A stretch of DNA of 64,000 nt, taken from a virus. The DNA lies in the IMG/VR virus record IMGVR_UViG_3300045988_141150; one strand, written 5' to 3'. The notes below the pieces were generated by a model. It saw nothing but the letters and a program-made list of their open reading frames with translations. It was not told the DNA's origin and ran no database searches. Position 1 is the stretch's first letter. The number at the start of each line of letters is the position of its first letter. The translations under genes and the position numbers were made by a program. Shown here one piece after another: positions 42,481-60,579 of the stretch.

Positions 42481-44130
42481 TTATTTCATTGCTTCTTTAT
42501 TTTGAATAGTTTTTTCACTTTTCTAATCATCAGGTTTTTCCGGACGTCCTGCTTCGCCATTAGAAACTTTAGCAGTTCCAGAACCTGAGCTTCCTGAATT
42601 ATTTTGAGTTTTATTATTAGATGATGAACCTTTTAAACCCAAAATATCTTCACTACCCATAGTAGAACTCATAAGAGGAGGAATCATAATTTCACTTAAA
42701 TGTAAAATCTCATTTTCAAAATGAGCTGCATTAAGAATAAAACTCTATGAATGTCCAAGAGCAATCTAAGACAATAGTTTTGATTGTCCCATTTGCGCTT
42801 GTTCTTTATACATTTTAGAAAGTGTTTGATAATTATTCTGAGTAGTTTCTAATAAATAAAATCTAAAATTATATTTCTTATTACTACTCTTTTTTTCAAT
42901 AATTCTATTAAAGAATATATTAAACTATAAAATTAAACTTCTTATTGTAGATTCATCATTTAATACTGATTTTTCTAAAGCCATATTGCCATCAGTATTA
43001 AACAAATTCTATGAAATACCTAATGAATTATAAACACTACGTTCAACTTTAGCTAAATCATCTGTCGTTGTAGTAGTATTTTTATCAGACATATCAATAG
43101 AATCTACATCAGTAAATGTAGTTAAAACATCTACTCCAATAGCCCTCTATAACATCTAAACGGCATTATTATGGATATCTCTGGCTTCATCAACATCAAA
43201 TATCAAATCACCATTTTTATCCATTGGGAGCTTTTGGACTAAAATTTTAAGCAACTTCTACATTTGTTTCTTGCGGTCAAGATCTTGCGCTGCATCTAAA
43301 TCCATAATAGTAGGAATGGAATTTACAAAAATAGGAACATCACTATTATTAATATTAAATTTAATACAATTTTCTGGCTCAAGAACATACCAACTACCAG
43401 TATGCTAGCATCCAACCGCATCTTCTAAAGCAAGTTTTCCTTGCTTATATAAAACATAACCTTTAGCAAATTCTTCTGGGAATAATTTTAATACTTTTAA
43501 GCGATAATTCATATCTTTAAAAGTATCAAAAAATCGCATATCAAATTCGACAACTGGGATATTATTTACACTATAACGTGTTCTACAATATCTAACTGGC
43601 AATTCTTGTAAAATTAGATTTTTCTCTGAAGGAACTATATATCCATAATAGCATCCATTTTTAACAACTTGCAAAGCAATATCTCCACAAATCTTTTTAA
43701 TATAACTATTATCAAAATAATTCAACATTCTATAAAAATCTTTTAAAACTTTTTCTTCTTTTACATTATCATCATAAGTTTCGGCTGCAATATACCAATC
43801 ATAGCGGTATAAAAAAGCAACATAATTACAAACTCGTTGATATACACCACTTATATCATAATAAAAATTAGAAATGTATCGCAAAGTATTTAAATCTCTT
43901 TCTGCGAGTGCGCGAAGCACATCAGGTTTCGTAATAATACGATTTTGACCTGGGTATCTAATCTTACTATAATCACCAAGTTTTAAAATAGCATCATCTA
44001 AAGTTTTTGTGCCAACTTTTATTTTTCTATTGGCATAATCCGTAGCATCATTATAATTATATTCACAACGACCATTATAAATATCAAAACCTTTAGCATG
44101 AATCTAATCATTACGATCTTGCGTATCCAA
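42481..44130 (-). CDS. portal protein (about 549 aa, multiple TAG)
   Basis: TTG start with GGAGG RBS; frame followed by hand into ORF 43405..43920; TAA at about 42481; size and position between terminase and scaffold. Confidence 0.5.
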
Positions 44131-44143: not shown

Positions 44144-44500
44144 TTAATAACCTGCTAATTTCATTATATAATCATAAGAAATAAGGTTTTCGTCGGTATA
44201 TGGAATCTCTATTAATCTAAAATCATGTAAAGCGCAAAAACGTCTTTTTTGATTATCATTATATTGCTACTGGTATAAACCGCGTTTTCCGCCAAATTTA
44301 GAACTGGCTTCATAATGCTATTTTCCCTAATACTCAATAATGAAATCAATTTTTCCATCATCATCAAATATAACAAAATCAAAACGAAGCGGACGCCCGC
44401 TGGGGCTTTTTAAATCTGGAAAGATATATTCCATTTTAAAAGGTAGTCCTGCTTCTTCTAAGATTTCTTCAATTTTAATTTCTCCTCTTGAAGCACGCAT
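44144..44500 (-). CDS. small PD-(D/E)XK-type (Vsr/DUF559-like) nuclease-fold protein (about 118 aa, 3 TAG)
   Basis: ATG at 44500 with GGAGGG RBS; motif RFDFVIFDDDGKIDFIIEY*GK*HYE resembles the DUF559 core (vDF..iElDGgqH) when TAG is read as a sense codon; TAA stop. Confidence 0.35.
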
Positions 44501-44512: not shown

Positions 44513-46066
44513 TTAATTTAAAAAGCACCAATCAGCTGCATTAAACTTTTTACGTTTTTTCTTTTTATCTTCTTCAAGTTTTAAATAATATAATCCATAT
44601 TCAAAAGCCGAAAATTTATCTTTACGAATTCCGCGATTTGCTTGTTTTAGAATAATATTAATACCTTCATTTTCTTCGCGTAAATTCATCATTTCTTCTT
44701 TTAATATGGAGGTTAAAGTAAATGGTTTTAAATAATCTGCCCTTTGTTCAGGAGTCATTTTTGAACCTTTTTGAGTAGCTAATAATTTTTCTTTAGCCGT
44801 TCTCTCATCTATTAAGAATTTTACCTTACCCGCTTGTAATTGAGTCTGAGCATTAGCATGACATTCAGTATTTATTGGAGCATTTGCTTTAATAACATAC
44901 ATAGCATCAAATTGAGTATTTGGTGTGCGATATTTTTTATAATATCCATCATCATCATTCTCAACGCCAAAATCAGGTAAAAATTCACCATCTTCATCAT
45001 TTTGAGATTTTACCATATAATCTAAAAGCCCAATACCTAAACCATTACCGTCTATAACTAAAGTTTTAGCTTTATATTTATAAAATAATTTCTTTAATTT
45101 AATAGCCTAATCTTCAAAATGATCATCTGACATAGTATACATATTTACTAATGATTTAATAGCTGGACCTTGAGCTTGTGGTGTTACTTTAAATACACAA
45201 ACTACTGAATCGCATCCCTTACGGCCTACATCTACAGAAAGCACATAATAAGCTTGCGCGCCCGCACGTCCAGAAGCTTCATACTCAGGCTATAATAATT
45301 TTCTATTTCTATCAAAATGCTCTCCATTAAAGAAAGCATCTTCAACAGTTCCTGACCACTTAGATTCATATTCACGCTCAAATGAGGCCTCGTTATAAGT
45401 TCCTTCATTCTTTTGGTCAGTAATAAATGTCTTACTTTGTAATCCTACCGCAACAGGAGTTCGCCATGTTCCGCCTAATACCATACAACGATCGGGCTAA
45501 GTTACCATACGAACTAAGAAACCAATAAGTCTATCATAAGGGAACGTGCCCTTATAACCAGCAGTAGTAATATAGATTTGTGATTTATTTAATGGCTCTT
45601 GCTCATTGGTAGTGCCATCTTTAGCTCTACGGGAAATTGCCATAACAGGAATAATAACTTCACGAAGGATGGCATCATCAATACCAACACACTCTTCCAT
45701 TAGTCCACCATGACGACGCTGACCACGAGTGCTTTCACGAGCTGCGAGGTTATCTAAAACTGAACCATTTTTAAATACATATCTAACTTTATCTTTTCCT
45801 TCAAGAGTTTTTCCTCGGCTCCAATCAATTTCTCGATTAAAACTTGGAATAAGTTCACATATTTCTTGAACTTTATCATGAAGAATACTAGCACCTTGTT
45901 CTTTACCTCCAGAAGTAACGAATAGATGCGCACCAGGATACAAAATACATCTAATCATTAATGCCATAACAGACAAAAATGATTTAGAATAAGCACGAGG
46001 AAAAACCGCGTAAACATACTAATAACGCATAACAGAACGGAGAAATACTCTCTAATAAAAATAAAA
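44513..46066 (-). CDS. terL: terminase large subunit (about 515 aa, at least 4 TAG)
   Basis: ORFs 45497..45976, 45290..45484 and 44513..45016 share one frame; ATPase-like N-terminal region and nuclease-like C-terminus; position upstream of the portal; TAA at 44513; start not resolved. Confidence 0.55.
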
Positions 46067-46251
46067 ATTAAATTCTCCATCTTTTATTTCAGTGCGTCTT
46101 CCTCGCACCATAAAATCTACAAATAAATCAGGATATTCTCTCCAAAAAGCAACGTATTTTCGGATGATGGGCATTACCGCCTCTACTCGCTCCGGTGATA
46201 AACCTATTTTTCTACGGCTATCACTTAACTACAGTAAATCTTGTAATGCCA

Positions 46252-47439
46252 TTATTTATTCAAACCCTATAAGAACTCATTATCTTGCGCGGACTCCTAT
46301 TCTTTAAATTCCTCAAAGTCCGCGTAATCACTATCTTTAATAGTTTTTTCAAGTTCTTCAATACTTAAATCAGCATCATCAACGATATCACTTTCCACGT
46401 TCTTTGCTTTCTCTTCATCTTCTTTAGCATTTTCGCGTAAAGCCTTTTCTACCATTGTGCTAATATTAGTTTCATCTTCAATAAGAGTGCGAGTATAACG
46501 TTGCATATCTTGAATAGTTAAATCCACTTTATCATGTGGCTATTCAACATAATATCTTTCAATATATCCTTCTTTTTCACACAATTCAATTAATTCACCA
46601 ATTGAATCAACAAATTCACCTGATTCTGCTTTATTTTGAGCAGCGGTAAATTTACCAGACTTCATTAAGCTATCGTATACTTTGCTCATCTTTTGGAAAC
46701 CTTCAATATCACCAATATCGATCAATTGATTTGCCTTTAAAGATGTCTTACATATTAATTTTAGCGTATCTTTGTGTCCGGCACCTTGAATATCATAAGA
46801 AGCCATCATTTCTTCATACAACTATTCAAGCTTAACCCATTCTTCAGGCTTATAAGTTTTGCCCCATTTAAGTCTTAAATAAGTGCGGTCTTCATCAGTT
46901 AAATCTAATTCTTGTTCCACTTCACCACTCTATTGTGCGAAATAATCTTCCGTAGGAGCATTAGGTGGTGGAGCATAAACCGGCTCTTTTAGTTCTCCTT
47001 CTGGAATAGCGATAGAACTTTTTTCAATAGCAGTTGCAATCTATTGAGCGTCATATCCTTGGCGTTTCATAGTTTGCTCTAATTTATTATTTGCCATCTA
47101 CTGTAAAAATTCTGTATCTTTCCAACGATAATCTTTAAACTATTTGAGTTTCATTTTTGACAAATAACGTCCAAGAATTGTCATACCGGTCATAGACTGC
47201 GGATCGCGCCCATATTTTTCCATTAATTTATTCCATTCGTCTGGGACATAAGGAACATCCGCTTCTTGTAAAATCCATAAATAAGTATCTGGATTCCAAT
47301 TATCGACGTGCATTGTCATACATTTTTTGCACACAGGGAATTTACCATCATTAGGATATTTTTCTAAATTATTAGATGAATAAAATTCCGTGCCATTCAT
47401 TGTGCGGTTACATTTTTCGCAATAATATGTTTCAGCCAT
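46252..47439 (-). CDS. hypothetical protein with N-terminal zinc ribbon (about 395 aa, about 9 TAG); possible small-terminase position
   Basis: ATG at 47439 with AGGAG RBS; CxxC..CxxC; frame followed by hand through ORFs 46540..46821 and 46297..46527 to TAA at about 46252. Confidence 0.35.
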
Positions 47440-47488: not shown

Positions 47489-48544
47489 TTAAGATTTTTT
47501 GGCCTTAGAATTTCGACAACTTTTACAAATACTATAAAAGCCATCTTTACTTGTTTTATTTTTACTAAAATATTTATTGTGAGCTAATTTTATTTTGCCA
47601 CAACGACTACATTTTTTATATTTACCTTTTTCAACATTTAAATAATAATTATCTAAGTATTCATCTTCCGCAGTCGAAGCAATTAATTTTGGAATTTTAT
47701 TACGCCATAAACTTGAAATATATTCAAGGCTGTGCTTAATACCAAATTCCATTTGTATTTTCTCTTGAATGTCAATATTTTGTAAACCATCAATTTTATA
47801 TTCAACGATTCTATCATAAAGAGGATAATTAGCTAAAGCTTTATCACAAAGTTTATCAAAATCCTCCATTAAATACCATAAATCTTTATCATATTCGCCC
47901 CAACTATCTTGCTTTAATCGGGAATAATTACATAAAATCGCAGAACATATCTCAGGTCTTAATAAACTAATTCCATCAGGAATGGGAAAACCATCATCAT
48001 CAAAAATAAATGTTTCATCATCTAATGGAATATAAGACTTTGATCTGGTTAATTTTGTAGGCACTATTGGACGACGATAAGCATTTTTTATAACATACTA
48101 ATCTTTACGCATTTCAATAAGAGCCTTTTTAATAACAAAAGCATCTTTACCTTCTGTTACTTTTAATTTAGCCTCCCAAACATTAATGGCTTCTCTTAAC
48201 TAATTTAAACTTGGTATCTCTTCTAAATCTTTTTTTGTAATTGTAATATGTGGTTGAAATATTGTATTTCTATTATCTGTAATTAAATTATAAATTCCAT
48301 CTTCGCCATTTTCGAGTTGGGAAACAAGACCTTCAAAAGAAGTCTCACGTTTATTAACTGTAGCCATACGATTATCAGTTAATAATTTTTTCTCCTTTTT
48401 TTCTTGTTTCTCCATACAAAGAACCAAATAGTCTGCTAAAATTTCTAAATACTTTTCAGGCGGATCTGGATTATCAGCCAAAATTTGTTCGACTAATTGA
48501 TTTCTTTCTTCTGGAGTTTGTAAAGAATAATCAAGTTTTATCAT
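47489..48544 (-). CDS. first late-operon protein (351 aa if both TAG are read through; 114 aa if TAG terminates), C-terminal zinc ribbon
   Basis: ATG at 48544 with GGAGG RBS; TAG at codon 115 (48200) and a second TAG (48098); same frame continues into ORF 47489..48064; TAA stop. Confidence 0.5.
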
Positions 48545-48568
48545 TTTTTACCTCCAGTCTATGTTTAT

Positions 48569-48597
48569 ATTATACTCGAAAAAATTTTTTTTGTCAA
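48569..48597 (-). promoter_or_regulatory. sigma70/sigmaA consensus promoter for the late operon
   Basis: minus-strand TTGACA (48592-97), 17-nt spacer, TATAAT (48569-74), about 20 nt upstream of the RBS and ATG of gene 47489..48544. Confidence 0.55.
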
Positions 48598-48679
48598 GTT
48601 TCATTTAAAAATTTTTCTTTTTATATTTAAAAATTTTTTTAACAAAACAAATAACTTTTGCCCAATCACGCCCTACGAT

Positions 48680-48708
48680 TTGACATTTTTTATTTTTTAT
48701 TTTATTAT
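48680..48708 (+). promoter_or_regulatory. promoter for the first plus-strand gene
   Basis: TTGACA-17-TATTAT. Confidence 0.4.
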
Positions 48709-49129: not shown

Positions 49130-49502
49130 AGTAAGAGGAATAGATGCGGTAATATTTAGATTAGAACAAGAATATTCTAACGCAACAAGAGATAAAGATC
49201 CTTTTGTAAGAGATTGGAAATTATTTAAAACAATACGTATTGAGAAAAAGGATAATGGGTCAAGAACAATTACTTACAGACCTTTATCAGACGCGGAAAA
49301 GGCTCAATTAAGCACCAAAGAAGAACAAGAAGAATATCAGTTAAACAAATACAAATATGTATTAGAGCACTTAATGGAAAAATATGATATAAATACTATT
49401 AATAGATATATTGATAGTTGTAAATATAAAGATAAATTAATTGAATATATTGAGAAAAAATTAAATGCGGAAACCACTCAGCCCTTTGAAGGCAATTGCT
49501 AA
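49107..49502 (+). CDS. hypothetical protein (131 aa)
   Basis: ATG at 49107 with GGAGG RBS; overlaps the end of the upstream gene. Confidence 0.5.
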   Translation: MGRNQPFEVRGIDAVIFRLEQEYSNATRDKDPFVRDWKLFKTIRIEKKDNGSRTITYRPLSDAEKAQLSTKEEQEEYQLNKYKYVLEHLMEKYDINTINRYIDSCKYKDKLIEYIEKKLNAETTQPFEGNC

Positions 49503-49596
49503 AAAGTGTCAGCAGAAAGTCACTTATTCTGTTACTTCTGGATTATACACTCTTATGCAGGGTGAGAAACCTAAAAGAGGTAGAAAAAAGAAATCA

Positions 49597-49707
49597 TGAT
49601 TTGAAATTAAAAATTGATTTGTTGTTTTAACCGTATTCTGAAATTGAAAATTGATTTAGATAAATTTAAATTATTCTTCGTGATTTGAAATTGAAAATTG
49701 ATTTAGA
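49597..49707. repeat. three iteron-like direct repeats (tgatttgaaattgaaaattgattt), spaced about 42-45 bp apart
   Basis: copies at about 49597, 49637 and 49682 in the non-coding stretch where GC content switches. Confidence 0.6.
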
Positions 49708-49739
49708 TTGCGTTTTGACCACGCAAAAGGAAAAACACA

Positions 49740-50079
49740 AATAAAAAAAAATTTTTTCCCGAAATACACCCCCGCCCTATAAGGTTCTAACTTGTTTATT
49801 CTCTGAGAGTATACCAGCCTTACTCTCGCTCTTTTGCGGAACGCAAGACCCCATCCCGCATAAATGCCCCGGTAAACGTTGCTCGGCTCGCTGGCGGTAG
49901 TGGCGAGCCGAGTTTTATAAAAATCAGCAGTTTGCACAAATTTCTCGCCGAAACTTCGTCATAATGCACAAACATCAAAATGCCCGAAACTACGCCATCA
50001 CATTTGGGTAAAATGACTATTGACAATCCAGTAGCCATGTGCTATACTTGTATCATCAAAAAGAAAGAGGTAAATCAAA
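49740..50079 (+). repeat. partial, diverged copy of the early intergenic cassette (TTTTTTCCC box, GC hairpin, GCACAAA box, promoter)
   Basis: hairpin gctcggctcgc..gcgagccgag (49881-49913) followed by gagtttt; ttgcacaaattt box; ttttttccc at 49751. Confidence 0.4.
50020..50048 (+). promoter_or_regulatory. consensus promoter
   Basis: TTGACA-17-TATACT with TG extension (tgtgcTATACT). Confidence 0.55.
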
Positions 50080-50445
50080 ATGAAGAACATTTCCAAAATC
50101 ATCACCATGGCCATTGCTATCATTCTCTCCGTGTCTTTCTTTGGCCCGTTCCACGACCACACAACCGCGGAAGCCTGTGAGGAAGCGCCCCAGTCCTACG
50201 ACCTCTCGGTCATTGAGAATTGGTGCGGTTCAGGCACGGAGCGCGGAAGTATCCGTTTCGTCGGCGCAGAGGTCTATGAGCGCGAGGGCGATACACTGAC
50301 GCTCATTGATGAGCAAGGCAATCTGTGGGACGTGGAAGCACTCAACATTGATGACAACGACTTCTTGCTCTTGTGGATTAACGACAATGACACTGACACT
50401 GTGGAAGATGATACAATCATTAAGGTATGGAGAGAGGCTTACTAA
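50080..50445 (+). CDS. secreted or membrane-anchored protein with an N-terminal signal peptide (121 aa)
   Basis: RBS AAGAGG; hydrophobic N-terminus MKNISKIITMAIAIILSVSFF; acidic. Confidence 0.55.
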   Translation: MKNISKIITMAIAIILSVSFFGPFHDHTTAEACEEAPQSYDLSVIENWCGSGTERGSIRFVGAEVYEREGDTLTLIDEQGNLWDVEALNIDDNDFLLLWINDNDTDTVEDDTIIKVWREAY

Positions 50446-50476
50446 GTCTCTCTCTTTCTTGCGGATCGGCGAAGAT

Positions 50477-50494
50477 TGTTAAAAAATTAACAAG
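50477..50494. promoter_or_regulatory. perfect 18-bp palindrome TTGTTAAAAAATTAACAA (candidate operator or activator site)
   Basis: centre lies 29.5 bp upstream of the -35 box at 50515; identical copy at 50899 with identical spacing. Confidence 0.45.
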
Positions 50495-50514
50495 CAAAGA
50501 AGAGTAAAAAACTC

Positions 50515-50543
50515 TTGACAAATGCGCAATGATGTGCTACAAT
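50515..50543 (+). promoter_or_regulatory. consensus promoter
   Basis: TTGACA-17-TACAAT (tgtgcTACAAT). Confidence 0.55.
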
Positions 50544-50573
50544 GTAGATACAATAAGAAAGGGGAATACTCAG

Positions 50574-50864
50574 ATGACTAATAAGAATTTTTATAATGCT
50601 CTCAAAGCAGAAAAGGAACGGTTGATGAACGAAAGCAAGCAGGCATCCCGCGACTGCCAGATTAAGCATGGTGAGATGTCAAAGGCATGGAACATTGTCA
50701 ATGCCCTTGAAAGCTTGGGTAAGTTTGGCACGCAGGAACTCAGCAACGCGTATGATAACTATGAGGAAGCCAGCTACGCAAGTATGTTAGCAGACAACCA
50801 CTTCGATGACATTGATGAAGCCATTGATAAGATAAATGGATTGATGGGTCTTTACGAAGAATAA
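50574..50864 (+). CDS. small acidic protein (96 aa)
   Basis: ATG with AAAGGGG RBS; TAA stop. Confidence 0.55.
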   Translation: MTNKNFYNALKAEKERLMNESKQASRDCQIKHGEMSKAWNIVNALESLGKFGTQELSNAYDNYEEASYASMLADNHFDDIDEAIDKINGLMGLYEE

Positions 50865-50888
50865 GGGAGCAGTAATGCTCCCTTTCTA
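50865..50888 (+). terminator. rho-independent terminator
   Basis: gggagc-agtaat-gctccc then ttt. Confidence 0.5.
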
Positions 50889-50898
50889 ACGGCGTAGA

Positions 50899-50916
50899 TT
50901 GTTAAAAAATTAACAA
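50899..50916. promoter_or_regulatory. second copy of the palindrome TTGTTAAAAAATTAACAA
   Basis: identical sequence; centre 29.5 bp upstream of the -35 box at 50937. Confidence 0.45.
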
Positions 50917-50936
50917 AGATTTTTCTCAAAAAGGTC

Positions 50937-50970
50937 TTGACAAATCAGTTAGAATGTGGTATTCTATAAT
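50937..50970 (+). promoter_or_regulatory. consensus promoter
   Basis: TTGACA-17-TATTCT overlapping TATAAT. Confidence 0.5.
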
Positions 50971-50994
50971 CACAAAGGGAAAGGGGAAAGAAAA

Positions 50995-51204
50995 ATGATT
51001 TATGGCATTGTTTATTATACTAAGGGCGGTCAGGGCTATCTCTTCCAGCAAGCGTTCGAAGAACAGCGCGCTATGGAGATTGCAGGTAAGATGAACGACT
51101 TACTCGCGACAGGTGCTACGATGTATAATGATAAGTCCTATGGCAAGCTCGACTTGCGGAACGTTGAGTATTTCACAGTTGAACCCAGTAGCGAAATGTA
51201 TTAA
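50995..51204 (+). CDS. small protein (69 aa)
   Basis: RBS AAAGGGGAAAG; TAA stop. Confidence 0.5.
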   Translation: MIYGIVYYTKGGQGYLFQQAFEEQRAMEIAGKMNDLLATGATMYNDKSYGKLDLRNVEYFTVEPSSEMY

Positions 51205-51208
51205 GGGC

Positions 51209-51236
51209 GGGAGCGGGCTCCCCGCTCTTTCTCTTG
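51209..51236 (+). terminator. rho-independent terminator
   Basis: gagcggg-ctcc-ccgctc followed by tttctctt. Confidence 0.5.
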
Positions 51237-51327
51237 CGCCGTGGGGCGCGTGTAGAGCGTCCCAGCCCGAACTTTATCACAGTAAAGCATTAAAGCAAAA
51301 TTTTTTCCATTTTTTGCCAAAAACCAC

Positions 51328-51356
51328 TTGACATTCCTATCCCGAAATGCTATAAT
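51328..51356 (+). promoter_or_regulatory. consensus promoter
   Basis: TTGACA-17-TATAAT (tgcTATAAT). Confidence 0.55.
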
Positions 51357-51389
51357 AGTATCATCAAAAGAAAGAAAGAGGTAAATCAA

Positions 51390-51512
51390 ATGTCTATTCA
51401 CGATGGTCTTGTTCTTCTCGCTATCTATGTTGGTGTTATCGGCGCGGGCGCGCTCATCGAATACGTGGAGCACCGCGTAAAGAGAGCGGTTCATCGCAGA
51501 AAGAGAAGTTGA
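51390..51512 (+). CDS. hydrophobic micro-protein (40 aa, single transmembrane helix with basic tail)
   Basis: RBS AAGAGG; MSIHDGLVLLAIYVGVIGAGALIEYVEHRVKRAVHRRKRS; below the ORF-track size cut-off. Confidence 0.4.
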   Translation: MSIHDGLVLLAIYVGVIGAGALIEYVEHRVKRAVHRRKRS

Positions 51513-51530
51513 AAAACTTCTCTTTTTTTA
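51502..51530 (+). terminator. rho-independent terminator
   Basis: agagaagtt-gaaaa-aacttctct then T7. Confidence 0.5.
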
Positions 51531-51540
51531 TAAAAAACAC

Positions 51541-51574
51541 TTGACAAATCCAACAGCCGGTGCTATACTATAAT
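51541..51574 (+). promoter_or_regulatory. consensus promoter driving a transcript of about 140 nt with no convincing ORF
   Basis: TTGACA-17-TATACT/TATAAT; transcript begins tTGTCAAGAGGGG. Confidence 0.5.
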
Positions 51575-51726
51575 TGTCAAGAGGGGAAGAGATAAGTTAC
51601 TTCCCAAAGGGTGTGTGGCAAGTAGCCATTTCCTTTGATAAAACGCTTAGTTGGAGCGACCAGACAGGGCGCGCACTGTCCGCAAAAGTAGAGAATAAAA
51701 AAATTCCAACTTCTCAAAAAAACCTC

Positions 51727-51755
51727 TTGACAGACCCCTTAGAGTGTGATACAAT
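51727..51755 (+). promoter_or_regulatory. consensus promoter flanked by the 9-bp inverted repeat CTCTTGACA ... TGTCAAGAG
   Basis: cCTCTTGACAgacccc..TACAAT..aTGTCAAGAGg. Confidence 0.5.
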
Positions 51756-51759
51756 AAGG

Positions 51760-51813
51760 ATGTCAAGAGGCAGACAGGAGCGAACAACCTCTCCCCAATG
51801 CGTAGTTGGGTGA
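51760..51813 (+). CDS. leaderless micro-ORF MSRGRQERTTSPQCVVG (17 aa)
   Basis: ATG 5 nt after the -10 box with no RBS; one of a family beginning MS(R/G)G. Confidence 0.25.
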   Translation: MSRGRQERTTSPQCVVG

Positions 51814-51859
51814 AGTAAAACAAAATCTCCCTACCGAACAAAAAAGTTCAAAAAACCTC

Positions 51860-51888
51860 TTGACAAACCCCTTAGAGTGTGATACAAT
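51860..51888 (+). promoter_or_regulatory. consensus promoter driving the tRNA-like RNA
   Basis: cCTCTTGACAaacccc-17-TACAAT. Confidence 0.5.
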
Positions 51889-51900
51889 AAGGGTACAGAT

Positions 51901-52012
51901 GGCGGTGAGGTAGAACGGTTCTACTTCCACAAAGATGGCTGAGATACAAAAGTGTCGCTCACTTGGAAACGTTCGCTATTGGAAAATGTGGGTTCAACTC
52001 CCACCACCGCCT
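51901..52012 (+). ncRNA. tRNA-like small RNA (about 112 nt): 7-bp acceptor stem, D-arm with GG, canonical TTCAACT T-arm, but an aberrant 34-nt anticodon region
   Basis: ggcggtg pairs with caccgcc; D-arm gtag-aacggtt-ctac; T-arm gtggg-ttcaact-cccac; own promoter; no ORF; stem ttcca/tggaa (25-29 with 64-68) encloses 34 nt; no CTA triplet in the loop. Confidence 0.35.
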
Positions 52013-52032
52013 CAAAATTTTTTGAAAAAACA

Positions 52033-52061
52033 CTTGACAAATCCAAAAGTAGATGTTATAA
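52033..52061 (+). promoter_or_regulatory. consensus promoter
   Basis: TTGACA-17-TATAAT (tgtTATAAT). Confidence 0.55.
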
Positions 52062-52093
52062 TGTAGATACAATAAGAAAGGGGATAAAAACCA

Positions 52094-52356
52094 TGACTAC
52101 TTACAACATTCTCACTATTGGCCCTTCTCGTGAACCGAAGCTCGCGGGCAAGTTCAACGTTGCGGATACTGAAAACTTCCTTGACCGGTTAGAGGAAACG
52201 CTCTACATTCTCTTTGAATTAGAGCCGAAATCCCGCGAATGGAAACGCGAATTTCTCAAACATCTTTTTGCGGAATTCACTTATCACTTTTGCGAAGATT
52301 CCCGCGTTGAAAAGCAAGGCAACAATATTATCGTTTATGAAGAAAATGAGGGCTGA
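52094..52356 (+). CDS. hypothetical protein (87 aa)
   Basis: RBS AAAGGGG; TGA stop. Confidence 0.55.
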
Positions 52357-52375
52357 AAAAGCCCTCATTTTTTTT
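52348..52375 (+). terminator. rho-independent terminator
   Basis: gagggct-gaaaaa-gccctc then T8. Confidence 0.55.
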
Positions 52376-52396
52376 CAAACTTTTTTCAAAAAACTA

Positions 52397-52428
52397 TTGA
52401 CATTTACTGCCCTAAGTGGTATTATAAT
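52397..52428 (+). promoter_or_regulatory. consensus promoter
   Basis: TTGACA-17-TATTAT/TATAAT. Confidence 0.55.
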
Positions 52429-52472
52429 ATCAGAAAGGGAAAGGAAAATCCCGAACACCAGAAAGGTTAGCT

Positions 52473-52664
52473 ATGGATACTTTCGAAATGTATTACGAGA
52501 AATTCATGAAGATGCGCAAGGCTGACATTATTCGCGAGGGTCAGACTTGGGATATTTGGGCAAACTGCCAAAGCACTGCCGATAGCCTGATGAAGTGGAC
52601 AAAGCCCGTTCTTGCGAGAGTTCTTGCTGGACGCCTGGACCGTTTGGAAAAGCGGGGCTACTAA
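52473..52664 (+). CDS. hypothetical protein (63 aa)
   Basis: RBS AAAGG; TAA stop. Confidence 0.5.
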   Translation: MDTFEMYYEKFMKMRKADIIREGQTWDIWANCQSTADSLMKWTKPVLARVLAGRLDRLEKRGY

Positions 52665-52680
52665 GCCCCGCTTCTTTCTT
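52650..52680 (+). terminator. rho-independent terminator
   Basis: aagcggggc-tacta-gccccgctt then ctttctt. Confidence 0.5.
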
Positions 52681-52691
52681 GAAAAAAGTTC

Positions 52692-52720
52692 TTGACAAAT
52701 CTCGAATCTATGGTATAATA
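52692..52720 (+). promoter_or_regulatory. consensus promoter
   Basis: TTGACA-17-(tgg)TATAAT. Confidence 0.55.
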
Positions 52721-52749
52721 AGAGTATAAAAGGAAAGGGGATAAACAAA

Positions 52750-52989
52750 ATGACTTTGGACATGATTAAAAATGTAATTGGCACGGTAAAAGGCGCGCTG
52801 ATGTTCTATGAGGGGAATGGCGTCGAAGTGATAAACGAAAACACTTGCGGTCGCTATCTCAAAGACCGCAAAGGTCGCATGACTTTGAATGGTGATGTGT
52901 TAGACGCAAGCGAAGAGTGGGTGCTGGGATTGCCGGTCAGCGATTTGAAAGCCAGAGATAACGTTCTCATTATTTATGTTGATGGCTAA
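52750..52989 (+). CDS. hypothetical protein (79 aa)
   Basis: RBS AAAGGGG; TAA stop. Confidence 0.5.
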   Translation: MTLDMIKNVIGTVKGALMFYEGNGVEVINENTCGRYLKDRKGRMTLNGDVLDASEEWVLGLPVSDLKARDNVLIIYVDG

Positions 52990-53004
52990 AATTAAATTTT
53001 TTGA

Positions 53005-53250
53005 ATTAAAAATCTCCCCAAAAATGGGGAGATTTTTTTGTACATTTTATCTATTGACAATCCCAAAACTTCATGGTATAATCGGCCGGCGCGCGAACGG
53101 ACCTGGCGCGCCGAGTTTTTGTCAATAGGCGGGTTGCACAAATTTTTGGGGCAAATCTTTGTGCATAATGTCAATAGACAGAATCCCGAATTGGTGCTAT
53201 ACTATAATCACAGTAAGGGAAGGAAAACCTACCAAACCGGAAAGGGATAA
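53005..53250 (+). repeat. early intergenic cassette, short type: terminator, promoter P1, GC hairpin plus T-tract, GCACAAA box, promoter P2
   Basis: terminator 53009-53040; P1 TTGACA 53045 with TATAAT 53068; hairpin cggcgcgc..gcgcgccg 53078-53104 then agttttt; P2 TAGACA-17-TATACT 53166-53194. Confidence 0.6.
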
Positions 53251-53254
53251 CAAC

Positions 53255-53563
53255 ATGATTAACATTCGTTCTATTCTCAAACTCGCTGAAAATGACGGTC
53301 TGACCCTCAAACATGGCAAGAAGGTCAATTACAAGTCCGGCTGGCAGGTCGCCACTAATGGCGTTGAATGTAAGACCGCCCGCGAAGCCATTAACGCGGT
53401 CAAGGAATATGGCGGCAACTGCGGCGTGTGGTTTGCGAACGGCATTTATTATGTTGACAAGTCCAAGAGGGTGCAGACCAAGAAGCAGGCGCTTGAAATC
53501 GGCAAGGCGTGCAACCAAATCAGTGTATATGGCTGGGCGCGCGGCAATCTGGCTTACTGCTAA
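53255..53563 (+). CDS. hypothetical protein (102 aa)
   Basis: true start at the internal ATG 53255 with AAAGGGA RBS; TAA stop. Confidence 0.5.
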   Translation: MINIRSILKLAENDGLTLKHGKKVNYKSGWQVATNGVECKTAREAINAVKEYGGNCGVWFANGIYYVDKSKRVQTKKQALEIGKACNQISVYGWARGNLAYC

Positions 53564-53573
53564 AAAATTAAAT

Positions 53574-53609
53574 AGAGGGCTTGACAAAACAAGCCCTCTA
53601 TGCTATAAT
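53574..53609 (+). promoter_or_regulatory. promoter whose -35 box sits in the loop of a 7-bp hairpin (agagggc-TTGACAAAACAA-gccctct)
   Basis: TTGACA 53581-86, 17-nt spacer, TATAAT 53604-09. Confidence 0.5.
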
Positions 53610-53641
53610 AAAGGCACAATAAAGGAAAGGGAGAAAACAAC

Positions 53642-53911
53642 ATGGAAATTAAATATGCTCACGAAATGGCGGCTATCGCTAAGGACATCCGCACCGCCAA
53701 GCGCGCCAAAGATACTGCTACGGCCCGCGCCTATCTTGAAGAAAACCTGATGAAAGATATTGAAGACCACGCGGAAAAAGGCGAGAATTATCTGTCTCGC
53801 TGTCTCGTTGCCATTGAAGATGAAGCCGTGAAAGAAGCCTTAAAAAATCTTTTGCGGAATTATGGCTATACAACTTCTTATTCAAACGGCGTTCTCACCG
53901 TAAGGTGGTAA
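53642..53911 (+). CDS. hypothetical protein (89 aa)
   Basis: RBS AAAGGGAG; TAA stop. Confidence 0.55.
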   Translation: MEIKYAHEMAAIAKDIRTAKRAKDTATARAYLEENLMKDIEDHAEKGENYLSRCLVAIEDEAVKEALKNLLRNYGYTTSYSNGVLTVRW

Positions 53912-53916
53912 GGTAA

Positions 53917-53946
53917 AAGAGGGAAAATTTTTCCCTCTTTTTCTAA
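53917..53946 (+). terminator. rho-independent terminator
   Basis: agagggaaaa-ttttt-ccctcttt then ttc. Confidence 0.5.
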
Positions 53947-53954
53947 AAAACTTC

Positions 53955-53983
53955 TTGACAAATCCAAAAGCAGATGTTATAAT
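53955..53983 (+). promoter_or_regulatory. consensus promoter
   Basis: TTGACA-17-TATAAT. Confidence 0.55.
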
Positions 53984-54015
53984 AAAAGCACAATAAAGGA
54001 AAGGGGAATAAATTA

Positions 54016-54087
54016 ATGGAATGTCCTTATTGCGATGGAAAGTGCGGAACACATGCTCAATGCGTTAAATGCGGAAAAGGGAAATAA
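54016..54087 (+). CDS. zinc-ribbon micro-protein MECPYCDGKCGTHAQCVKCGKGK (23 aa)
   Basis: RBS AAGGAAAGGGG; four Cys arranged as CxxC..CxxC; overlaps the RBS of the next gene. Confidence 0.35.
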   Translation: MECPYCDGKCGTHAQCVKCGKGK

Positions 54088-54089
54088 AA

Positions 54090-54446
54090 ATGGGAACGGA
54101 ATTCTTAATTATTGGCGGAATTTTTAGCGCAGTCCTTGCGCTGTTTGTCTGCCTTGTCTGTTGGTGCCGCATGGAAAAGTCTCACCCAATAGTCAGATTG
54201 TTAGTTGGTATCCTTATTTCGTGCGCCATCGGTTATGGCATGACGGGCGCGTTAGTCGCAGAACATAATGCCGATAGAAAAGCATGGAACAACGGCTATT
54301 GCTCCATTTGCGGAAATGAAATGGAATTTGTAAATGCTTCTCATGGTCGGCATGGAACAGTTTATTACTATTGGTATTGCGATGAGTGCGGTCATACGTT
54401 AGAGTTAACTTCTAACTTTGCAAAGGGGGAAACAGATAATGAATGA
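54090..54446 (+). CDS. membrane protein with two transmembrane helices and a C-terminal zinc ribbon (118 aa)
   Basis: internal ATG 54090 with GGGAAATAAAA RBS; CSICGN..CDECGH. Confidence 0.5.
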   Translation: MGTEFLIIGGIFSAVLALFVCLVCWCRMEKSHPIVRLLVGILISCAIGYGMTGALVAEHNADRKAWNNGYCSICGNEMEFVNASHGRHGTVYYYWYCDECGHTLELTSNFAKGETDNE

Positions 54447-54645
54447 AAAAACTATCCCACAGGCTTTGAGAGAACAGGCAGACGCCATTGAAAAGTTAGC
54501 TCAAAGAATTGCGAAAGAAAGCAAGGAATTTCCAGACGAGGAAGACCGCAGAGACGGCGGAGAACTTGCGGACGCTTTATTTGCGATTCAATCAAAGCTC
54601 CGCTATGAGTACTCTTGGATTGCGGAAACCATGTGGGACGTGTAA
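54439..54645 (+). CDS. small acidic protein (68 aa)
   Basis: ATG 54439 overlaps the upstream gene by 8 nt (operon); TAA stop. Confidence 0.5.
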   Translation: MNEKTIPQALREQADAIEKLAQRIAKESKEFPDEEDRRDGGELADALFAIQSKLRYEYSWIAETMWDV

Positions 54646-54646
54646 T

Positions 54647-54688
54647 TTTCAGGCGAGATTTAATTATCTCGCCTGAAAATTTTTTTCA
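54647..54688 (+). terminator. rho-independent terminator
   Basis: ttttcaggcgagat..atctcgcctgaaaa then T7. Confidence 0.55.
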
Positions 54689-54729
54689 AAAAACTATTGA
54701 CAAACTCACCCCGTTGTGGTATTATAATC

Positions 54730-54798
54730 ATGTCAAGAGGAAGTGGTAAGCCTCTTGAAGTAGTGAACAAATTTCTCATACTATGGTTTGCGCGGTAG
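54730..54798 (+). CDS. leaderless micro-ORF MSRGSGKPLEVVNKFLILWFAR (22 aa) that ends in TAG
   Basis: ATG immediately after the -10 box; one of only two early-region reading frames terminated by TAG. Confidence 0.25.
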   Translation: MSRGSGKPLEVVNKFLILWFAR

Positions 54799-54830
54799 CC
54801 GATAATTACCGCGCCCTTTCTATTTCATTT

Positions 54831-54848
54831 TTGTTAAAATTTTAACAA
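54831..54848. promoter_or_regulatory. third palindrome TTGTTAAAATTTTAACAA (variant of the 50477 and 50899 site)
   Basis: perfect 18-bp palindrome; same half-site TTGTTAAAA. Confidence 0.35.
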
Positions 54849-54893
54849 TGATTGTTCGGCCGGGCGCGCACGGACCACGCGCCCGGAATTTCA

Positions 54894-54922
54894 ATTATAT
54901 CACAGGGCCAGCAATTTGTCAA
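54894..54922 (-). promoter_or_regulatory. reverse-strand consensus promoter firing leftward into the GC hairpin
   Basis: plus strand reads ATTATA-17-TGTCAA, which is TTGACA-17-TATAAT on the minus strand; the only minus-strand signals in a plus-strand region. Confidence 0.5.
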
Positions 54923-55048
54923 GCAAAAAGTCGCGAAAATTTGCATAAATTATTTTTCCCAATTTTGTGCGATCCGTCAATAGACAAATCTCTAAGAGTG
55001 TGTTATATTATAATTGTTCCAAGGGAACAGAAAGATGAGGTAAATAAA

Positions 55049-55255
55049 ATGACTAACTACAACATTCACTCTTTTATCAAGACCCAGCTTCTCCATGCCG
55101 AGCAGATGCCCAGCGATGCCGAACTTTTCAAGCATAACGCCTATGGCGCAGTCTCGTGGGAGTTATATCGCACGAATGACCATGCCCTTGAAGAACAGTG
55201 GGCAAATGTATATGCTCCCAAGTTCGACGCCATCATCAGAAATTATCATTTCTGA
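55049..55255 (+). CDS. hypothetical protein (68 aa)
   Basis: internal ATG 55049 with GAGG RBS; TGA stop. Confidence 0.5.
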   Translation: MTNYNIHSFIKTQLLHAEQMPSDAELFKHNAYGAVSWELYRTNDHALEEQWANVYAPKFDAIIRNYHF

Positions 55256-55261
55256 TAAAAA

Positions 55262-55296
55262 GGGCTTGACAAAAGCCCTTTCGCATGATATAATAC
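55262..55296 (+). promoter_or_regulatory. promoter with its -35 box in a hairpin loop (aagggc-TTGACAAA-gccctt)
   Basis: TTGACA 55268-73, 17-nt spacer, TATAAT 55291-96. Confidence 0.5.
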
Positions 55297-55324
55297 ATAT
55301 ACAATCAAGAAAGAGGTAAAACAA

Positions 55325-55663
55325 ATGCTTATCAAAATGTCAAAACACGCCACGCAAGACCGCATTGACCGCCTGCTCTTCATCTACGATAATGTAGGAA
55401 TCGGCGAACCGTATATCGACAGTGTTGAGGACGATGTTCTCTACACTATCACTACAACAGGTATTCTTCTTGTTCGTAGTGCTAAGGACGGAACACTCAT
55501 TACAGCCTATATCGCGGATATTGATAAAATCACCGCAATATGGAGAAATAAGCACGGCGAGCGCCCTATGCCTGATAACCTTTACAAGCGGGTTCTCGCA
55601 AACGCGTTCTTTGATAGAATGTGGAATAAGCAAGAAAAGGAGAAAAAGAAAAATGTTCGGTAA
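55325..55663 (+). CDS. hypothetical protein (112 aa)
   Basis: RBS AAGAGG; TAA stop; first gene of a 3-gene operon. Confidence 0.55.
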   Translation: MLIKMSKHATQDRIDRLLFIYDNVGIGEPYIDSVEDDVLYTITTTGILLVRSAKDGTLITAYIADIDKITAIWRNKHGERPMPDNLYKRVLANAFFDRMWNKQEKEKKKNVR

Positions 55664-56006
55664 GAAAAAGAAGCCTTTCAATCCATATGAAAAACGCGCG
55701 GACGATGCGCTTTATGAAGTATGGGAAACGCGCGACCGCCTTTATGAAAAGACAAGGCAAGTCATTACGCGCGTAGGGGTGATTAACCTTTACCCCAATG
55801 GCGCTGACCGCGAGAAAGCCGTCTCTGACGCCGAAGAAGCGAAGCACGCTTTGCTTGTAGCTATTGGAGCATACGACACCGCGCGCATGGAATACAATGA
55901 TTATGTTGAAAAAAACGCGGAAAAGTTTGACAACCATAAAGAAAAATGGACTACCACGAGCCATGAAATTATCGAATGGGCTTACAAATACTATTATAAA
56001 GGGTGA
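55653..56006 (+). CDS. hypothetical protein (117 aa)
   Basis: internal ATG 55653 with AAGGAG RBS; overlaps the upstream gene by 11 nt. Confidence 0.5.
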   Translation: MFGKKKKPFNPYEKRADDALYEVWETRDRLYEKTRQVITRVGVINLYPNGADREKAVSDAEEAKHALLVAIGAYDTARMEYNDYVEKNAEKFDNHKEKWTTTSHEIIEWAYKYYYKG

Positions 56007-56011
56007 ATAAA

Positions 56012-56245
56012 ATGAAGATTACTATTAAGAATAATAAACTCGCCCCCTTTGGAGAAATTGCCAAGGGCGTAGTTTTCAAAGACCCGACCGCCGAAGATTA
56101 TTACATCAAAATCGCCGCAGAGGTCGATGAAAATACCGGTGATGATGAATGGAATTGTCTCCATTTGGACAATTACGCTCTCGACTGTTTCGGCCTAAAA
56201 GATATGGTTCTCCCCATCTACGATGCGGAACTGATTATTCCCTGA
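56012..56245 (+). CDS. hypothetical protein (77 aa)
   Basis: ATG 56012 with AAAGGG RBS; the ORF-track start at 56003 is GTG. Confidence 0.45.
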   Translation: MKITIKNNKLAPFGEIAKGVVFKDPTAEDYYIKIAAEVDENTGDDEWNCLHLDNYALDCFGLKDMVLPIYDAELIIP

Positions 56246-56358
56246 TAAAACCGGACTTTGTCCGCGTTTCTCTCCCCCTTTCCTATGGCTTTGGCGGTTG
56301 TACCCCAAAAAACAACCGCCACCCTTTCCAAAAAATAAATTGAATGGAGATAAAAAAG

Positions 56359-56535
56359 ATGAAGAATGAGAAACTTAGTGAGGTTGTTAAAACTGTGTGC
56401 TTGATGGCACGATACGGCATTCAGAAGGGATATCCCTCGGGCGGGACAGAAGCAAATGACATGATTGAACGTGTCGCGCTTCTTGAAAACAAGCTCGTTC
56501 CCATTCTCGTCGACCTTGAAGCCGTAGAAAACTAA
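56359..56535 (+). CDS. hypothetical protein (58 aa)
   Basis: ATG 56359 with GGAG RBS; the alternative ATG at 56344 lacks an RBS. Confidence 0.4.
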   Translation: MKNEKLSEVVKTVCLMARYGIQKGYPSGGTEANDMIERVALLENKLVPILVDLEAVEN

Positions 56536-56757
56536 ATGAAAAATCACCCAATTTGGGTGATTTTTTTTGTTTACTTTCACTATTGACAAAGTTCCTTGAA
56601 TGTGATAAAATCGTCGGCGCGCGGACGATTGTGGCGCGCCGAGTTTTTTGTCAAGAGGTAAGTTCAACAAATTTTCGCACGAATTTTTGTGTAAAATGCC
56701 AATAGACAAAAATCCTATAATGTGGTAAGATGTATACAACAAATAGAGGGGGCTAAA
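56536..56757 (+). repeat. early intergenic cassette, short type (terminator, P1, GC hairpin plus T-tract, GCACGAA box, P2)
   Basis: terminator 56540-68; P1 TTGACA 56583 with TAAAAT 56606; hairpin cggcgcgc..gcgcgccg 56615-41 then agtttttt; P2 TAGACA-17-TAAGAT 56703-31; same stem sequence as the copy at 53078. Confidence 0.6.
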
Positions 56758-57105
56758 ATGATGGTTGCATGGTATTGGTTAATTCTCGCGTTTTGCGTGG
56801 GTATTGCGTTCGCTACAATCACTGATGAGTGGTATGATTGGGAAAACACTTTAACTGACATTCTTGCATGGATTGCTCTGATTATCGGCTTCGTTCCTTT
56901 GACTTTCTATTGCATATTTCTCAAACTGACGGTTTTCCACCCCACTACGCGAGAGAAGTTTGAGGAAGTCAAAAAGGTTAGCGAAGAAACTTGTAAAATC
57001 TATCGAGTATGCGGAAACGTGTATTTCTGGATTGACCTTAAAGCAACAAAAATCTATAACAAGGTATTCTTTATTCGAGTAAAGGAAACTGAAAACAATG
57101 GGTGA
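56758..57105 (+). CDS. membrane protein (115 aa, two transmembrane helices)
   Basis: internal ATG 56758 with AGAGGGGG RBS. Confidence 0.5.
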   Translation: MMVAWYWLILAFCVGIAFATITDEWYDWENTLTDILAWIALIIGFVPLTFYCIFLKLTVFHPTTREKFEEVKKVSEETCKIYRVCGNVYFWIDLKATKIYNKVFFIRVKETENNG

Positions 57106-57256
57106 AAGAGTTAATGTTTTATGTTTAATTGAGTGGTTGCGCGCTTGGACGGAAACCTTTAATGACTGCGCTTGTTGTCCTTTGTCCAACGAGTGCGACC
57201 GCCGGAGCATCAGTTATGAATGTGCTGATGACCTATTAGAAAAATTAAAGGAGTAA
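57098..57256 (+). CDS. Cys-rich micro-protein (52 aa)
   Basis: ATG overlaps the end of the upstream gene; 6 Cys; weak RBS. Confidence 0.25.
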   Translation: MGERVNVLCLIEWLRAWTETFNDCACCPLSNECDRRSISYECADDLLEKLKE

Positions 57257-57271
57257 ATTAAAAACTCTCTA

Positions 57272-57306
57272 TTGACATTTTTGTTATAATATGATATTAT
57301 TATAAT
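57272..57306 (+). promoter_or_regulatory. consensus promoter
   Basis: TTGACA-17-TATTAT/TATAAT. Confidence 0.5.
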
Positions 57307-57329
57307 AGAAAAAGGAAAGGGTGATAATA

Positions 57330-57803
57330 ATGAATACAATTCTTCTGTTCGCGCTTTGCACGGCGGTGAATGTTATTCTGTCAACTATCAAAAGCATTTT
57401 GACTGTTAAGGGCGGAAAACTTAGCGCGTCTTTCATCAACGCTCTCACTTATGGTTTTTATTCCTATGTGATTGTGCTGACTTCTGCGGACGGTATGCCT
57501 ATTTGGTTAAAAATGGCTATTACTGCCATTTGTAATTTCGTAGGCGTTTACCTTGTCAAGTGGATTGAAGAAAAAGCGCGTAAAGATAAATTATGGAAAG
57601 TCGAGCTTACCGTACCGACAAGATACACTAATACCATTGACTTTGACTTACATGATGTTCCACATTCTTACATTGAATTGAGCGATAAACATACGCTTTT
57701 CAATTTTTACTGCGCGACCCAAAAGGAAAGCGCAAAAGTCAAGGCTATCGCTAATCAGTATGAAGCAAAATATTTTGTTGCGGAAAGCAAAAATCTTGAA
57801 TAA
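57330..57803 (+). CDS. membrane protein (157 aa)
   Basis: ATG 57330 with AAAGGGTG RBS; multiple transmembrane helices; TAA stop. Confidence 0.5.
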   Translation: MNTILLFALCTAVNVILSTIKSILTVKGGKLSASFINALTYGFYSYVIVLTSADGMPIWLKMAITAICNFVGVYLVKWIEEKARKDKLWKVELTVPTRYTNTIDFDLHDVPHSYIELSDKHTLFNFYCATQKESAKVKAIANQYEAKYFVAESKNLE

Positions 57804-57837
57804 AGGGCTTGACAAAAGCCTTTTATTCTGCTATACT
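57802..57837 (+). promoter_or_regulatory. promoter with its -35 box in a hairpin loop (aaagggc-TTGACAAA-gcctttt)
   Basis: TTGACA 57809-14, 17-nt spacer, TATACT 57832-37. Confidence 0.5.
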
Positions 57838-57867
57838 TAACGTATCAAGTGAAAGGGGAAAATTAAA

Positions 57868-58320: not shown

Positions 58321-58327
58321 AAAAATA

Positions 58328-58367
58328 GCACAAGGGGCTTGACAAAACAAGTCCCTTGTGCTATAAT
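58328..58367 (+). promoter_or_regulatory. promoter with its -35 box in the loop of a 9-bp hairpin (gcacaaggg..cccttgtgc)
   Basis: TTGACA 58339-44, 17-nt spacer, TATAAT 58362-67. Confidence 0.5.
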
Positions 58368-58396
58368 AAAACCATCAAAGGAAAGGGGCAAATAAA

Positions 58397-58970: not shown

Positions 58971-58995
58971 CAAAATACAGCAAATGCGCTATAAT
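58967..58995 (+). promoter_or_regulatory. consensus promoter
   Basis: TTGACA-17-TATAAT (gcgcTATAAT). Confidence 0.55.
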
Positions 58996-59027
58996 GTAAG
59001 TACAGTAAAGGAAAGGGGTAAACACCA

Positions 59028-59553: not shown

Positions 59554-59582
59554 AAATACATCAAATGAAAGGGGAAAATAAA

Positions 59583-59792: not shown

Positions 59793-59795
59793 AAA

Positions 59796-60571: not shown

Positions 60572-60579
60572 AAAACCCC

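Follow-up and report, generated by a model that had tools for sequence, protein, structure and literature searches.

Gene Context of the Junction

The window (the whole stretch of viral DNA that was analysed, 64 kb in length) is made up of two compartments, TAG-recoded AT-rich late genes versus a host-like, promoter-dense early arm, and this two-compartment organisation is more striking than the element at their border described below. Positions 1 to ~49757 (30.2% GC) carry minus-strand late genes that are readable only with TAG translated: stop-free coverage of this arm rises from 40% to 92% with TAG->Q, and there are 2–80 in-frame TAG codons per gene, the 80 being present in one 2752-aa ORF. 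Positions 49758–64000 (43.1% GC) hold small genes on the plus strand that use the standard code and have individual promoters and RBSs, and the GC composition changes within ~50 bp at a C-run. Recoding of TGA in this right arm was rejected, since the gain in stop-free coverage came from overlapping spurious frames, as was an assembly chimera at the GC switch, since many independent contigs, some of ~192–201 kb, share the junction. ARAGORN identified no tRNA, and hence no suppressor tRNA, in the 64 kb. Relatives with the junction were recovered by exact-core and protein-anchored scans of viral contigs, and the full genome is probably ~197 kb, because the junction recurs in contigs of ~192–201 kb. 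The features of the junction, from left to right, are:

42481–43728, minus strand: portal protein (phrog_2739, E=3e-70)
44513–46252, minus strand: large terminase (TerL) of the SPbeta YonF type (full-length BLASTP against YonF, E=1e-45)
46252–47439, minus strand: YonG-like protein (phrog_3314; N-terminal CxxC..CxxC; BLASTP against SPbeta YonG, E=1e-11)
47489–48544, minus strand: phage sigma factor, first gene of the late operon (phrog_5767, E=9e-55; 2 in-frame TAG)
48569–48708, no single strand: divergent consensus promoters at the true strand switch (48597–48569 minus, 48680–48708 plus)
49465–49599, plus strand: basic 44-aa ORF, AT-hook-like, C-terminus KPKRGRKKKS, ending at repeat copy 1
49595–49624, plus strand: repeat copy 1, a block 1 duplicate that is degenerate (CAT for CGT, core G>A)
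49632–49661, plus strand: repeat copy 2, which reproduces block 1 well; the "long" spacer AGATAAATTTAAATTATTCTT comes after it
49679–49777, plus strand: full conserved boundary element, defined by the R1 profile match, gap-free alignments and the information profile
49679–49681, plus strand: CGT of block 1 (block 1 being repeat copy 3)
49708–49726, no single strand: small inverted repeat TTGCGT-N7-ACGCAA, spanning the CCAG-type box (−5.1 kcal/mol, z=−2.55)
49720–49721, plus strand: CA of the CCAG-type box
49740–49757, plus strand: A/T run
49758–49764, plus strand: C-box, CCCGAAA
49769–49777, plus strand: C-run
49882–49917, plus strand: GC-rich hairpin CTCGGCTCGC-N11-GCGAGCCGAG followed by TTTT, terminator-like (−13.3 kcal/mol, z=−3.97)
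50020–50048, plus strand: first sigma-70 promoter of the early arm, TTGACA-17-TATACT with extended −10 TG, upstream of an RBS and the ATG at 50080

The late operon runs leftwards in the order sigma factor, phrog_3314 protein, TerL, portal and capsid protein. The YonG-like (phrog_3314) gene lies directly upstream of TerL, i.e. in the small-terminase position. Pfam PF27269, a recent family, is assigned in precomputed annotation to near-identical homologues of its product, for which no PDB relative was found by sequence; its database homologues are all at least 99% identical and so provide no alignment depth. The TerL is 47% identical to that of Enterococcus VRE9_4/H1, and by this protein the nearest isolates are large Firmicutes siphoviruses, with the SPbeta-like phages further off. 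Near-identical (at least 99%) copies of the YonG-like protein occur on hundreds of ENA, Logan and NCBI gut-assembly contigs, the longest ~198 kb, and the phage is clearly very common.

Elsewhere in the late arm, a free-standing homing/HNH-type endonuclease ORF (44144–44500, minus strand; phrog_9084, E=1e-26) is situated between TerL and portal, and in VRE9_1 a homing endonuclease follows a TerL N-terminal fragment. Of two giant TAG-containing ORFs on the minus strand (1890–9638 and 23619–31877; 2582 and 2752 aa), one presumably encodes a tape measure protein and its counterpart a large structural protein, by the precedent of phAss-1, a code-15 phage opened at its PhageTerm terminus (PMC10607447). 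As a guide to the boundary element phAss-1 was too distant, and it gave no module-like match.

At the strand switch, the minus-strand promoter (48597–48569) drives the sigma gene and the plus-strand promoter (48680–48708) drives three small genes, which occupy the DNA between the switch and a 480-bp non-coding stretch. Neither Pfam nor PHROG gave a match to the first early genes or to the ORFs of 44, 131 and 149 aa. The 44-aa ORF is kept in several lineages but not in all of those that have the element, and L040-type and L056-type relatives have related ORFs (RGRPKK..., KPKRNRKKKD) ahead of the element. Unlike the element, the genes flanking it are not conserved across the family. The preliminary description had located the repeats at a "switch point" between modules; the GC composition does switch at the repeats, but the strand switch is at 48545–48679, ~0.9 kb to the left.

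The Repeat Copies and the Conserved Boundary Element

Three direct repeats are present on the plus strand, at this one place in the window, as had been described, and they fall in 480 bp of non-coding DNA (49600–50079) that is indeed the longest non-coding stretch. The repeat array is itself non-coding, with stop codons in all six frames under table 11 and TAG->Q alike, so that the concern that the repeats might be part of a coding gene can be set aside. The 24-mer originally put forward as a threefold repeat, tgatttgaaattgaaaattgattt, is exact at 49681–49704, has one mismatch at 49597–49620 and three at 49634–49657, and copy 1 is degenerate. A 19-nt core, TGAAATTGAAAATTGATTT, describes the copies on the plus strand more closely (49602, one mismatch; 49639 and 49686, none) and has no further match in the window with up to three mismatches allowed (0.40 expected), while repeat detection gave a 30-nt family starting at 49595, 49632 and 49679. 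The start-to-start spacings are 37 and 47 bp, rather than the 42–45 bp (about four helical turns) first proposed; these amount to about 3.5 and 4.5 helical turns, which puts adjacent copies out of helical phase. TRF reported nothing for the array, because two different spacers separate the copies, which hence do not run head to tail. Copy 1 overlaps the TGA stop of the 44-aa ORF and has CAT at the position of the CGT that is invariant elsewhere in the family.

When a sequence-only profile of the conserved element (R1) was run against the window, copy 1 (49593–49622) matched model positions 5–34 with 14.9 bits, copy 2 (49627–49666) matched positions 2–41 with 25.8 bits (E=1.4e-6), and the full element that begins with copy 3 (49676–49776) scored 80.6 bits (E=1e-23). 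The array contains one, two, three or four copies among relatives with 97–99% identical sigma factors, with two spacer types, and the repeat unit length (37, 38 or 47 nt) differs between near-identical relatives; across relatives the spacing between copies is 25–47 bp. In distant relatives (72–85% sigma identity) the architecture is kept while the repeat sequence has diverged, and there is frequently one copy. Compared in this way, the "iterons" are lineage-specific tandem duplications of the 5′ block (~30 bp) of a longer element.

That element, of ~96–99 bp, is single-copy and has sharp edges in a comparison with ~75 related contigs. Its parts are block 1 (CGT..TGAAAT..AAAA..GATTT), a CCAG box, an A/T run located inside a stretch of ~18–23% GC, and a CCCGAAA..CCCCC box. 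The distance from the CGT of the last copy to the C[C/A]CGAAA..CCCC box is 78–79 nt in nearly all of the ~75 contigs (116 nt in two loci), and alignments of 18 and of 28 diverse copies are virtually gap-free across ~106 columns. An information profile from 48 unique copies, pairwise <93% identical, places the edges at positions 1 (CGT) and ~96 (C-run), with values near zero outside and strong blocks at positions 1–26, 42–43 and 75–94. The element occurs once in the window and at one locus per contig, ~197 kb contigs included, and is conserved across a large family of roughly 195–200 kb TAG-recoded gut phages. Among 15 close relatives it is 85–97% identical, and the DNA to the right of the C-run has been replaced in seven. 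No description of this element was found in the literature on phAss-1, in stop-codon recoding surveys or in that on SPbeta. As a 96-bp signature, it can be used to find the late/early junction in metagenome fragments; of 60 pattern matches in viral contigs, about 50 were true elements.

The element is discrete and acts at the DNA level. A structured RNA was rejected: RNAalifold found 0 pairs with 18 diverse copies, the DNA fold did not surpass that of shuffled sequences (z=−0.6), and Rfam gave no significant match, the only one at E<=1 being a sub-threshold hit to fstAT (23.6 bits versus a gathering score of 72, E=0.26). Relatives also have hairpins at the CCAG-type box, but their registers differ and RNAalifold finds no conserved pairing among them.

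The iteron layout seen in the preliminary description had suggested a replication origin or, alternatively, a packaging site. As an origin, the block 1 copies would be initiator-binding iterons, the A/T run an unwinding element, and the hairpins an aid to loading. Iteron origins, such as lambda ori and those with plasmid RepA iterons, likewise have direct repeats of ~20–30 bp beside an A/T-rich tract, and here the direct repeats do lie beside such a tract and small palindromes, in an element that is single-copy and conserved; in addition, the small ORFs nearby that lack an assigned function could include an initiator. In contrast to iteron origins, however, the copy number varies (one to four in close relatives, and one block 1 in many relatives), the spacing is unphased (37 and 47 bp here, 25–47 bp in relatives), no initiator gene adjoins the repeats, and the repeats are one end of a composite. 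No recognisable initiator, helicase loader or primase is found nearby, the right arm consisting of small early genes, and the flanking genes vary across the family while the element is kept. The cumulative GC skew, which the preliminary description had put forward as a check, has its minimum within ~1 kb of the repeats; on a fine scale the flip is at ~48650–48700 (near 48650), at the transcription strand switch and not at the repeats, and is for this reason uninformative with regard to an origin. Because the copy number is variable, the spacing unphased and no recognisable initiator located nearby, the iteron layout and the origin derived from it are without support, and we consider an origin unlikely.

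The absence of promoter-like features bears on regulatory roles. Two conserved hexamers at 16–18 bp spacing are absent from the information profile of the element, the closest sigma-70 promoters lie at distances of ~250 bp and ~900 bp, and the motif is used once in the 64 kb; a sigma-70 promoter or dispersed operator was accordingly rejected. The conserved positions of the element likewise misfit sigma-70/ECF-type promoters and CodY, Spo0A and cre boxes. Since there is no sigma-70 promoter within ~250 bp and the motif is not reused, the element is unlikely to be an operator.

A broader role at the level of transcription would make the element a platform for a phage regulator (the 44-aa protein or a phage sigma factor) or an insulator/terminator unit, which would keep the early arm apart from the small plus-strand operon or set the timing of the early-to-late switch. 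Consistent with this, the element lies between the plus-strand operon and the early promoter array and is followed by a conserved terminator-like hairpin, several lineages have a small, basic, AT-hook-like ORF that terminates at the array, and the early arm is rich in other regulatory repeats. Block 1 may also loosely resemble two-part phage-sigma promoters, e.g. the SPO1 late promoter (CGTTAGA..GATATT). However, the motif is present once per genome and is upstream of no late gene in the 50 kb late operon, there is no hexamer pair at a promoter-like spacing, and the nearest sigma-70 promoters are distant as noted. The adjacent small ORF is missing from some element-bearing lineages, and ~96 bp strictly conserved at fixed spacing exceed what an operator or terminator needs. 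A transcription boundary is, in our estimation, improbable to about the same degree as an origin.

Comparison with SPbeta and a Proposed Role in Packaging

The genome-opening point, or pac, of SPbeta-like phages has been mapped to the yonP-yonR gap, with headful packaging, by read mapping and by older restriction mapping cited in the same work (bioRxiv 10.1101/2021.11.22.469490). The layout of SPbeta is the same as that described here, with yonE (portal), yonF, yonG ... yonO and yonP on the minus strand, a 950-bp gap, and plus-strand early genes from yonR. YonF/TerL and YonG are homologous between the two (E=1e-45 and E=1e-11, respectively), and the pac slot is syntenic with the element. In the SPbeta-like phages, too, conserved non-coding DNA gives way abruptly to the variable early arm: when five SPbeta-like gaps are aligned, conservation ends at ...AATCGAAG, exactly at base 1 of the BUCT082 record, and the early side is unalignable. 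The first base of the BUCT082 record falls within the gap, and the two ends of this record adjoin each other in SPbeta; the choice of its start base is undocumented.

Weak sequence echoes of the element in the SPbeta gap speak for a pac site; the similarity is marginal and was noticed post hoc, which weighs on the other side. The gap (NC_001884, 14239–14463) contains five ATCGTAA motifs within 225 bp (three direct, two inverted), with 8 in 28 kb, and this cluster is the best R1 match in the gap, on the same strand, at a marginal 7 bits (E=0.012). The motif AAATAyACCCCC is common to the element and the gap on the same strand, and GTAAATATACCCCC in the gap bears a weak resemblance, seen post hoc, to the 3′ half of the C-box. 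A further motif of the yonP-yonR gap is ATATACCCCC, and a conserved GATGTAAATATACCCCC motif lies at about 14573; the latter and the ATCGTAA copies are candidate SPbeta pac determinants, apparently never dissected. The ATCGTAA cluster was rejected as an SPBRE/MrpR operator, since SPBRE, the repressor operator (PMC10516654), is AAAAAATATGTATAwA and is found elsewhere in the gap. SPbeta differs in several further respects. Its pac region, located by read mapping and not dissected, is ~650 bp rather than a compact 96-bp unit, and the motif geometry is 235 nt, against 79 nt in the element; YonO, a late RNA polymerase, is encoded where this phage has a sigma factor; and SPbeta is a temperate, standard-code phage of 134 kb, whereas this phage is ~197 kb and TAG-recoded. 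The SPbeta-like pac region is a possible distant counterpart of the element.

The SPP1 pac (pacL-pacC-pacR) and lambda cosB/cosN sites combine several short, fixed-distance recognition boxes for the small terminase with a segment that is bent or rich in A/T and with a nearby cleavage site, are unique in their genomes and lie upstream of the terminase genes. Their sequences are unrelated to that of the element, and in SPP1 and lambda the site is in or adjoins the small-terminase gene, whereas here it is ~2.1 kb from the YonG-like gene.

Of the two functions suggested in the preliminary description, the packaging site gains comparative support from the position of the element, upstream of a homologous YonG-TerL block and in a slot syntenic with the SPbeta pac, from its presence once per genome, and from its right edge, which is a boundary of recombination and conservation. 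The most likely reading is that the element, with its repeats, is a pac-type packaging-initiation region, and we put its chances at about even. Terminase, with the YonG-like protein as putative recognition subunit, would bind the conserved blocks, block 1 among them, with the A/T run as a bend or easily deformed segment, and would cut the concatemer at or near the C-box/C-run edge. Packaging would then proceed leftwards through the late operon by a headful mechanism, such that the promoter-dense early arm would be packaged last and injected first; the extra block 1 copies would be additional, dispensable recognition sites. Binding, cleavage and the direction of packaging are here what we infer by analogy with the SPbeta-like phages, whereas position, uniqueness, conservation and synteny are directly observed. 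Counting against a pac site are the ~2.1 kb (sigma gene and three small ORFs) between the element and the YonG-like gene, the dozens of metagenome and viral contigs that cross the whole element unbroken, and the VRE9 group.

In this Enterococcus VRE9 group, which comprises closer cultured relatives, no copy of the element was detected. A candidate module in Enterococcus phage VRE9_1, picked by eye for its 78-nt spacing, was rejected with a profile score of <5 bits with filters off, and none of the seven related records starts at it.

Contig termini were examined as indicators of DNA ends and proved uninformative. Several (L020, L022, L008, L121 and L256) end or start within tandem copies, and the ends clustered at block 1 are assembler breaks, because the tail of the previous tandem copy is present. 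One 4.6 kb contig (L098) ends within the C-box, a single case; L132 is not a contig end. Two contigs of one relative lineage (L128 and L144; IMG/VR 3300021387_001051 and 3300021399_001070) both start exactly 5352 nt upstream of the element, which could be a common assembly break or a real end.

The end of L098 in the C-box is among the points in favour of a fixed terminus, as opposed to a headful pac site. The element would then be a cos site, its C-rich box forming the cohesive ends, or else would bound a long direct terminal repeat containing the early host-takeover arm, in the manner of SPO1-type or T5-type phages. A GC-rich C-run set in AT-rich DNA looks like a cohesive-end sequence, and with its 33 near-consensus promoters the early arm is similar to host-takeover modules found in terminal repeats. 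On the other hand, the nearest studied terminase relatives (SPbeta-like) use headful packaging from pac, all contigs but L098 cross the C-box unbroken, and the element is at arbitrary coordinates in ~195 kb contigs. A fixed terminus is in our view very unlikely.

An extension of the pac reading is that the element is a compact "genome-start" module specific to code-switching phages, which would initiate packaging and fix the order of injection and may also insulate the arms or serve as an origin. The standard-code early arm, with its host-like GC content and >30 consensus promoters, would enter the cell first, and the TAG-recoded, AT-rich late arm last. We regard this wider role as quite doubtful. 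Should the element be a pac site in the ordinary sense, it would provide the physical genome start and the packaging direction for very abundant uncultured ~197 kb TAG-recoded gut phages and would account for where the late and early compartments meet; it would then be a packaging signal, an ordinary kind of element in an unusual genome.

Putative Regulatory Sequences of the Early Arm

The GC-rich, terminator-like hairpin (49882–49917) is present 100–135 nt past the C-box in many relatives, and in several diverged ones (L056, L116, L119, L120 and L122) its sequence is kept beyond the needs of a terminator. TGCACAA/TTGTGCA boxes are found between this hairpin and the first early promoter. From 50020 to 63656, 20 sites are perfect TTGACA-17-TATAAT, most of them with a TG-extended −10, and ~14 more match at 11 of 12 positions; these ~33 near-consensus promoters are nearly all on the plus strand, at about one per small ORF, and promoter-like sites in the early arm number 78 versus 27.5 expected. 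With this extraordinary density of promoters, the early arm looks like a host-takeover module.

Three pairs of convergent perfect promoters ~95 bp apart (58619/58712, 60264/60359 and 62580/62675) each flank one GC hairpin, and perfect promoters at 53054, 56583 and 54922 read into a GC hairpin and T-run with no ORF. Such promoter/hairpin units could give rise to tiny sense/antisense RNAs or could be RNA-polymerase decoy cassettes. The palindrome TTGTTAA-N4-TTAACAA is exact at 50476–50493, 50899–50916 and 54831–54848 (0.02 expected), each copy being just upstream of an early promoter, and arrays of it occur in the early arms of relatives L041, L045 and L056; an early-gene regulator probably uses it as its operator. 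A duplicated early gene encodes two paralogous proteins (124 and 125 aa; MxTSTTKKLTKRDRFEALLKMSEVQA...; 60852–61226 and 63203–63580) with a weak match to an Mnd1-type HTH.
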